Source: Escherichia coli (GTDB lineage: Bacteria; Pseudomonadota; Gammaproteobacteria; Enterobacterales; Enterobacteriaceae). Taken from it: a stretch of 386 bases of DNA. The stretch lies in the NCBI RefSeq assembly GCF_003334765.1, contig NZ_QOWT01000127.1; one strand, written 5' to 3'. Of the stretch, positions 1 through 386 are shown piece after piece. The notes beneath the pieces are model-generated. The model saw only the letters and a list, made by a program, of their open reading frames with translations, made no database searches and was not told the origin of the DNA. A program made the position numbers and the translations under genes. Position 1 is the stretch's first letter, and each line of letters starts with the position of its first letter.

Positions 1-386
1 TATGCCGAATCGCTGAAAAAATTTCGTCATCCAGGGAACAAGATTGGCTGCATTGTGATGAACGCCAATCCCTTTACACAGGGTCACCGTTATCTGATTC
101 AACAGGCTGCGGCACAGTGCGACTGGCTGCATCTGTTTTTAGTTAAAGAAGATTCTTCACGCTTCCCCTATGAAGACCGGCTGGATCTGGTATTAAAAGG
201 CACCGCCGATATTCCACATCTGACTGTGCATCGCGGCTCCGAATACATCATCTCCCGTGCCACGTTCCCCTGCTACTTCATTAAAGAACAGAGCGTCATC
301 AACCATTGCTACACCGAAATTGATCTGAAGATTTTCCGTCAGTACCTCGCTCCCGCGCTGGGTGTAACTCACCGCTTTGTCGGTAC
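1..386 (+). CDS. citC: [Citrate (pro-3S)-lyase] ligase (citrate lyase synthetase), internal fragment; partial at both ends, frame 1, last complete codon 382-384
   Basis: Seen in sequence: frame 1 has no stop codon over 128 codons, whereas + frames 2 and 3 contain multiple TGA/TAA/TAG (e.g. 14-16, 56-58, 95-97, 140-142, 144-146, 171-173, 282-284). The reverse strand has stops in every frame, with the longest open stretch about 64 codons. The translation (…KIGCIVMNANPFTQGHRYLIQQAAAQCDWLHLFLVKEDSSRFPYEDRLDLVLKGTADIPHLTVHRGSEYIISRATFPCYFIKEQSVINHCYTEIDLKIFRQYLAPALGVTHRFVGT) matches my recollection of E. coli CitC over essentially its whole length, including the T-x-G-H motif and the conserved GVTHRFVGTEP region. 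Codon usage is typical of Enterobacteriaceae. The identification rests on recalled homology, not a database search. Confidence 0.86.
76..87 (+). other. citC: T-x-G-H nucleotide-binding signature (T-Q-G-H; codons aca cag ggt cac) of the cytidylyltransferase-like / citrate-lyase-ligase C-terminal domain
   Basis: Seen in sequence: codons 76-87 encode TQGH, directly preceded by a hydrophobic stretch then N-A-N-P-F (GCIVMNANPF). Established knowledge: the (H/T)xGH motif following a hydrophobic beta-strand is the ATP-binding signature of the nucleotidyltransferase alpha/beta phosphodiesterase superfamily, to which the CitC C-terminal domain belongs. Confidence 0.7.

Follow-up and report, generated by a model that had tools for sequence, protein, structure and literature searches.

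Does the histidine codon at positions 217-219 of the stretch of Escherichia coli DNA analysed here (386 nt, the whole of which we call the window) distinguish it from the K-12 reference, and if so, what kind of difference is it? A preliminary description, made from the letters of the window, had assigned the stretch to citC, proposed an arginine at this position of the K-12 protein, supposed that a single cgt-to-cat transition separates the two, and expected a strain- or species-level polymorphism without functional note. Our comparisons suggest a different answer: the histidine is real, but it belongs to a second citC that is carried, with an entire citrate-lyase operon, on an accessory island.

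The assignment of the gene rests on the following feature.

Window 1-386, plus strand: internal segment of citC ([citrate (pro-3S)-lyase] ligase), from the open frame, annotated citC matches and TIGR00124

Frame +1 is open across all 386 nt of the window (translation YAESLKKF...GTADIPHLTVHRGSEYI...HRFVG), which corresponds to residues 132-259 of a 351-aa island-borne CitC, to residues 133-260 of K-12 CitC and, in K-12 numbering, to nt 397-782 of citC. The window matches an annotated citC in 5,422 of 5,426 complete E. coli genomes; its peptide aligns to positions 127-254 of TIGR00124 with 247.5 bits, and the full-length island CitC scores 588.4 bits on this NCBIfam equivalog against a curated cutoff of 262.1. 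Pfam PF08218 is precomputed for the same protein. With an equivalog score so far over its cutoff and a 100% match to annotated citC in 13 genomes, the earlier assignment to citC holds. The island allele is already catalogued in RefSeq (WP_000481771.1, annotated citC), and the feature as such is ordinary.

Other genetic content was considered for the same letters. The antisense overlapping gene nog1 is embedded in citC (EDL933 732757-733062; Fellner et al. 2015, PMC4683798). In K-12 numbering it spans citC nt −69 to 236; overlap with nog1 was rejected, as this gene ends about 160 nt upstream of the window. Coding on the minus strand was also rejected: it offers mechanical open reading frames of 24, 31 and 59 aa only, with no support for a gene. 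The 59-aa antisense frame (window 193-372, minus strand, GTG start) is not nog1 and its expression is unsupported; the histidine codon CAT reads as ATG on the minus strand, in frame in this antisense frame and eight codons before its stop. A search of Rfam at E <= 1 for RNA elements returned a single chance snoRNA match (15 bits against a cutoff of 50), and a search of PLSDB for plasmid carriage of the allele returned eight matches, all native-type (95.6-96.4%). Three records of the plasmid collection (NZ_CP141089.1, NZ_CP134663.1 and NZ_OL790696.1; 4.8-4.9 Mb) contain the native cit locus and are evidently misfiled chromosomes.

Two codons of the window specify a residue different from that of K-12, the second of which the preliminary description had not reported.

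Window 217-219, plus strand: CAT, His204 in island numbering; CGC, Arg205, in the alignment to K-12 citC
Window 79-81, plus strand: CAG, Gln158 in island numbering; AAT, Asn159, in K-12

Over the segment aligned with the histidine, CitC of K-12 MG1655 (b0618) reads GTADIPRLTVHRGSEYI, in which Arg205 is encoded by CGC. The proposed arginine was therefore correct and the amino-acid difference is real, K-12 having arginine rather than histidine; the supposed route from one codon to the other was not, since CGC and CAT are separated by two adjacent transitions, G218A and C219T. The codon CGT, which is one step from CAT, occurs in the outgroups E. albertii, 'E. coli' SCPM-O-B-8794, C. werkmanii, C. 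sedlakii and Intestinirhabdus, and at the position of the histidine codon an arginine codon (CGN) is present in every sampled genome of Escherichia, Citrobacter, Salmonella and Intestinirhabdus. A 41-nt probe centred on the histidine codon was found in exactly 13 complete genomes, at 14 places; the arginine version of the probe is exact in 5,342 genomes and has one mismatch in 69 more. Sequencing error was rejected as a source of the histidine, because the allele is identical across 13 independent complete genomes.

The histidine codon does not stand alone: alignment of the window to K-12 citC divides it into three parts.

Window 1-77, plus strand: left flank, 0 of 77 positions different from K-12 citC
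Window 78-309, plus strand: divergent tract, 15 differences from K-12 in 232 nt (6.5%)
Window 310-386, plus strand: right flank, 0 of 77 positions different from K-12 citC

The differences in the tract (positions 78, 79, 81, 127, 144, 187, 192, 218, 219, 234, 258, 261, 270, 300 and 309) change 13 codons, 11 of them synonymously, and 15 differences placed at random in the window would fall within so short a span with P = 0.004 (range test). Thirteen of these 15 sites are private to the island allele of the type found in strain 746 and to the native copy of one other strain, 3908. Across the whole gene, the island citC compares with that of K-12 as follows (K-12 numbering of citC).

nt 1-33: 7 differences in 30 positions, plus a one-codon deletion
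nt 34-473: 7 differences in 440 positions
nt 474-705 (the tract): 15 differences in 232 positions
nt 706-1059 (to the gene end): no difference in 354 positions

The tract is two to three times more diverged than the other island-type stretches. Since it lies about 6.5% from every native E. coli citC and its flanks equal K-12, the tract is, as judged from these alignments, a haplotype block older than its surroundings within a mosaic gene.

The distribution of the allele among genomes locates it. Window identity of at least 99% occurs in 13 of 5,426 complete E. coli genomes, and is 100% in every one of them; the next best genome matches at 96.9%, and 5,409 genomes fall between 95 and 99%. The window is therefore identical to a rare allele and to no common one. 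Each of the 13 genomes has two citC places, and the matching copy lies on an island flanked by insertion sequences, in the order GntR-Amidohydro_2-MFS-citCDEFXG-acnB. Strain 746, which we examined directly, illustrates the arrangement: its native locus (dpiBA-citCDEFXG-citT) encodes a CitC identical to that of K-12, with AAT and CGC at the two codons, and the island copy on the same chromosome has CAG and CAT there; the two operons differ at 119 of 5,207 sites, and the native citC differs from the window at 15 of 386 positions. In 11 more of the 13 genomes the other citC copy lacks the histidine 41-mer. Altogether, the exact window has 14 places in complete genomes: 13 on islands and one at the native locus, the latter in strain 3908. 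In a wider assembly collection, the exact island CitC protein was found in 146 blocks and a native-length CitC with both glutamine and histidine in 45.

We consider it probable that the His204 citC belongs to a duplicate citCDEFXG copy on an island flanked by insertion sequences, that this copy is a mosaic produced by exchange, and that its amino-acid changes are near-neutral. The histidine codon would then be a marker of a copy-specific haplotype, most likely a neutral one. The reading given in the preliminary description, a simple point polymorphism of a single native citC at the level of strain or species, is by comparison extremely improbable. It has in its favour that arginine to histidine is a conservative change at a variable site, and that native E. 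coli citC alleles do differ from one another by a few silent SNPs in this region. However, of the 14 places at which the histidine codon was located in complete genomes, 13 belong to an island-borne second citC; strain 746 has an arginine-type native copy beside its island; the codon is two bases from that of K-12 and linked to 13 further differences in 232 nt; and among more than 5,400 genomes no native allele exceeds 96.9% identity to the window, strain 3908 excepted.

The island that carries the second citC is represented here by that of strain 746 (locus L001, to which the coordinates in this and the next paragraph refer unless another sequence is named).

L001 8576-19462: GntR/UTRA regulator, lactonase-like Amidohydro_2 protein, anion-type MFS transporter, citCDEFXG and a second acnB

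The three-gene module upstream of the cit genes occurs in 33 of the 5,426 complete E. coli genomes (~0.6%); 13 of these island genomes carry the exact histidine allele, and about 20 islands lack the histidine context. Remnants of ISEc38, IS66 and IS3 flank the island, in at least two different flanking contexts. In every locus that holds the window, citC is annotated as intact together with citD, citE and citF for the lyase subunits and citX and citG for the prosthetic group. The acnB gene (16865-19462) follows citG after a 25-nt spacer and is, over its whole length, 96.8% identical to K-12 acnB in nucleotides and 99.1% in protein. As the island carries both a second cit operon and a second acnB, two unlinked core loci have been duplicated. 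The ends of the island operon depart from the native ones: CitC begins with MFNHIFTQ, one codon shorter than the native MFGNDIFTR (11608-11640), and CitG has 295 aa compared to 292 aa in the native protein, with eight mismatches in the last 16 aligned bases (16791-16839). No match to these ends was found among sampled Escherichia, and they look, from their sequence, like unconverted or remodelled junctions.

The upstream module has relatives elsewhere. Beyond E. coli, the island MFS transporter is closest to proteins of Intestinirhabdus alba (89%) and Hafnia paralvei (86%); both organisms have the GntR-Amidohydro_2-MFS module (~8300-11350 on their contigs) with no cit genes beside it, and these genera therefore provide no orthologue of the island CitC that would show the ancestral residues. 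In Hafnia paralvei the module directly follows the housekeeping acnB (aceEF-lpd-acnB-module-...-yacL), an adjacency that hints at a functional link with aconitase. For the island amidohydrolase the best match is 4-sulfomuconolactone hydrolase; for the transporter, PgtP and D-galactonate-type carriers come closest, and every one of these matches falls below the family cutoff. It is possible, although we hold this tentatively, that the locus is an undescribed catabolic island in which a foreign module has been joined to Escherichia-derived cit and acnB genes as a candidate route for a tricarboxylate or lactone, the divergent tract being a relic of the donor and conversion continuing. The putative route would consist of uptake of a tricarboxylate or its lactone, ring opening, aconitase and citrate lyase. 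A full-text search for literature describing the island found none.

Compared with K-12 without gaps, the island citCDEFXG has 116 mismatches in 5,207 bases (97.8% identity). These mismatches are dense at both ends of the operon, a run of 470 bases is free of them (P = 0.0016), and homology stops sharply, at one end within a few bases of where citC begins and at the other some 20 bases short of the citG stop. Islands also differ from one another: O157:H16 Santai and strain 10 have islands that follow the 746-type in gene order but carry K-12 bases at 13 of the 15 tract sites, including both amino-acid sites. In strain 10, the island and the strain's own native operon have strain-private SNPs in common at ~1462-3194 and 4747-4773 (operon coordinates), the stretch of the island that separates these native-like tracts retains 11 private SNPs, and both copies encode one and the same CitF accession. 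The reverse arrangement is found in strain 3908, which we picked out by a chimeric query made of the native upstream region and the window: its native citC, in a normal dpiBA/citT context, carries the whole tract and matches the window exactly, and its island has a native-type stretch at 3542-3695.

The apparent conversion tracts come from a small number of assemblies. The mosaic most likely arose by exchange within one cell, through gene conversion or homologous recombination of the island operon with the native one, as far as the aligned copies allow such events to be read. The direction of exchange in each strain is one that we infer, in the case of strain 3908 by parsimony. In the tentative reading of the locus as a catabolic island, the island and native operons would keep overwriting each other, and sequence would move between the accessory and the core genome. 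Gene conversion between duplicated bacterial genes is known, e.g. for tufA/tufB and for rRNA operons. The cit operons resemble these cases in that the two copies have strain-specific identical tracts, with private SNPs in both; they differ from them in that one partner resides on a mobile island and in that the support here is comparative only.

Further sequences with mixed copies were observed among draft and metagenome contigs. In three draft contigs (L101, L103 and L106) the operon interior has island-type bases over ~4.3 kb and is bordered left and right by native sequence; the flanks are 0.5-0.7% and the interior ~1.8% from K-12. In two ENA metagenome contigs (L104 and L105), dpiBA leads into an island-type citG followed by acnB. 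All five may be genuine recombinants, or chimeras made when a two-copy repeat was assembled; short-read assembly or polishing of such a repeat can homogenise or chimerise its copies, even in assemblies labelled “complete”, a caveat that weighs most on L101, L103 and L106.

This raises an alternative for the mosaics as a whole (the native copy of strain 3908, the strain 10 island and the draft contigs), namely that they are artefacts which arose in the assembly or polishing of a 5-kb repeat present in two copies. Identical runs in the two copies reach 713 nt, which exceeds short-read inserts, and in L104 and L105 a native upstream region is followed by the downstream region of the island. We nevertheless regard this explanation as unlikely: the island-copy histidine allele is identical in 13 independent complete genomes; the tracts are contiguous and have sharp ends, and strain 10 keeps its 11 private SNPs in between; and the same pattern appears in L101, an NCBI assembly, and in L106, a Logan assembly of another run. 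The alternative bears, moreover, on the mechanism of exchange alone and leaves the difference between histidine and arginine unaffected.

For the divergent tract two sources come into question: it may be a relic of the donor lineage of the island operon, or a later import. Over the tract, the window differs from K-12 at 15 positions, from Escherichia sp. MOD1-EC7003 at 13, from E1V33 at 16 and from SCPM-O-B-8794 at 17; it is farther from E. whittamii (22) and E. albertii (28), and K-12 itself differs from E. whittamii at 19 of 232. These distances to K-12 and to the Escherichia species place the tract at the depth of a cryptic clade, whereas its surroundings are within-species-like. A scan for the donor, with one genome per species (MOD1-EC7003, SCPM-O-B-8794, E1V33, E. 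whittamii and E. albertii, together with Citrobacter, Salmonella and others), found no donor: all of the scanned genomes have arginine, no tract and no MFS gene upstream, and no sampled Escherichia species is nearer to the tract than E. coli itself. A side observation concerns the nomenclature of one of these genomes: citC of 'Escherichia coli' SCPM-O-B-8794 shares only 91.7% identity with the window, and its distance from K-12 is similar to that of E. whittamii; by this measure the assembly looks like a cryptic-clade genome named as E. coli.

A later import of the tract from an unsampled, divergent Escherichia lineage, followed by its passage between the copies, would account for several of these observations: the tract (6.5%) exceeds the other island-type stretches two- to threefold in divergence and lies at roughly the distance of E. 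whittamii from K-12; the remaining island citC is within-species-like (7/440 and 0/354); and a CitC with both glutamine and histidine is encoded at the native locus in 45 public-assembly blocks. On the other hand, no donor appears among the species representatives; the tract is present in island variants that are 0.3% apart in the neighbouring module and have different flanks, which fits island ancestry; and the unique 5′ and 3′ ends of the island operon indicate that older, unconverted operon sequence is present on the island. We regard a later import as somewhat less likely than not.

What the two amino-acid differences might do can be judged from their places in the protein, one of which falls within a recognised motif.

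Window 70-87, plus strand: P-F-T-Q-G-H, the (T/H)xGH nucleotide-binding signature of the cytidylyl/adenylyltransferase fold, from the motif and from alignment to 'P(V/I)TxGH' of PPAT

Gln158 is the x of this T-x-G-H signature. In 40 CitC sequences N154, P155, F156, T157, G159 and H160 are invariant, and x alone of the motif varies. Column counts were taken over 122 CitC sequences (120 cluster representatives, K-12 and the island protein). At residue 158 they are N38, R36, L30, H10 and K2 plus six singletons; among the cluster representatives the island protein alone has glutamine, and Citrobacter sp. R56 has a glutamine encoded by CAA. At residue 204 they are R49, K39, N18, G13, H2 and T1, the other histidine being in a cluster named Citrobacter farmeri; with arginine or lysine in 88 of 122 sequences, a mild preference for a basic residue is possible at this position. 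Around it, I202, T206, H208, G210 and S211 are invariant or nearly so.

The TIGR00125 domain covers residues 146-203 of the island CitC and ends just before His204. In an AlphaFold2 model of CitC (mean pLDDT 85, pTM 0.81; ~95 over residues 201-210), residue 158 opens helix 158-169, after the signature motif, and residue 204 closes the loop that joins helix 188-198 to strand 205-208. A search for a solved CitC structure found distant PPAT chains only. These CoaD/PPAT proteins of the TIGR00125 fold are the nearest solved structures by sequence (E ~4e-4) and have the P-x-T-x-G-H motif in common with CitC; their segment 'adlPNLrV' aligns to the helix-loop-strand of CitC that holds residue 204, and the position of His204 is occupied in PPAT by asparagine, in a P-N-L/V turn, i.e. 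the position is again not conserved. PPAT is nonetheless distant from CitC, as it lacks the N-terminal acetyltransferase-like domain and acts on a different substrate.

CitC uses ATP to activate acetate, and its acetylation of the prosthetic-group thiol on CitD switches citrate lyase on. From knowledge of the family, the island CitC is predicted to act like any CitC. Between island and K-12, CitD and CitE are identical, CitF differs at two residues and CitX at four. As 11 of the 13 changed codons in the tract are synonymous and CitD and CitE are identical, the pattern of substitutions indicates that the island copy is under purifying selection and is not decaying. The column counts and the model point in the same direction for the individual residues: the changes from arginine to histidine and from asparagine to glutamine are most likely neutral or nearly so. 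The expected lack of functional note is probably right, given the mixture of residues in the histidine column and the presence of arginine in two islands. A full-text search for literature on R205 and N159 found none.

The opposite view, that Gln158 and His204 are adaptive and tune the island CitC in its handling of ATP or acetate or in its interaction with the acyl-carrier partner, appears very unlikely to us. Gln158 does lie inside the nucleotide-binding signature, glutamine and histidine are rare states in their columns, and both non-synonymous changes of the window fall in the sole tract that resisted homogenisation. Yet both columns are highly variable (11 different residues at 158 and 6 at 204); CitD and CitE of the island equal the native proteins, so there is no changed partner to adapt to; the asparagine/arginine version is present in at least two islands (Santai and strain 10), and about 20 of 33 islands are without the histidine context; and only 2 of the 13 changed codons are non-synonymous.

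Near-neutral divergence of a duplicate copy, the reading that we prefer, can be set beside known citrate-lyase loci. K-12 CitC (b0618, EC 6.2.1.22; dpiBA-citCDEFXG-citT) belongs to the same family, has the same citCDEFXG order around it and, within the window, differs from the island protein at two residues only. The surroundings of the operons differ: on the island an MFS gene precedes citC in place of the dpiB-citC control region, and acnB follows in place of citT. In Salmonella and Klebsiella the second cit loci show much greater divergence and are found in linkage with citS and oadGAB. In Klebsiella pneumoniae, a 13-kb citrate-fermentation gene cluster is variably present among strains (PMC2735749). 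The K. pneumoniae cluster and the E. coli island are alike in that a citrate-lyase cluster is present in some strains and absent in others; the E. coli island differs in that it is a second copy, ~98% identical to the resident one, fused to a foreign module and acnB.

The substitution that raised the question matters little: the enzyme is well known, the position varies freely and the change is conservative. Of more interest is what came to light beside it, namely the island and the exchange between copies. The 15-SNP tract, with CAT at 217-219 among its differences, serves as a marker that tells the island copy from the native one. This has a practical side: reads from the island copy, when mapped to a one-copy reference such as K-12, would give a false SNP cluster or recombination signal in citC. 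Of moderate interest is the island itself, a mobile second citrate-lyase operon, ~98% identical to the first, with an acnB and signs of two-way exchange with the core operon.

Two further citC sequences came to notice under unexpected names. The assembly of Terrisporobacter mayombei DSM 6539 includes a 484-nt contig (coverage 0.97) with a CitC fragment 99% identical to that of E. coli, which is almost certainly contamination. The CitC encoded on a contig labelled Chryseobacterium sp. 18061 is of enterobacterial type (76% identity), a sign of a mixed culture or of a mislabelled record.
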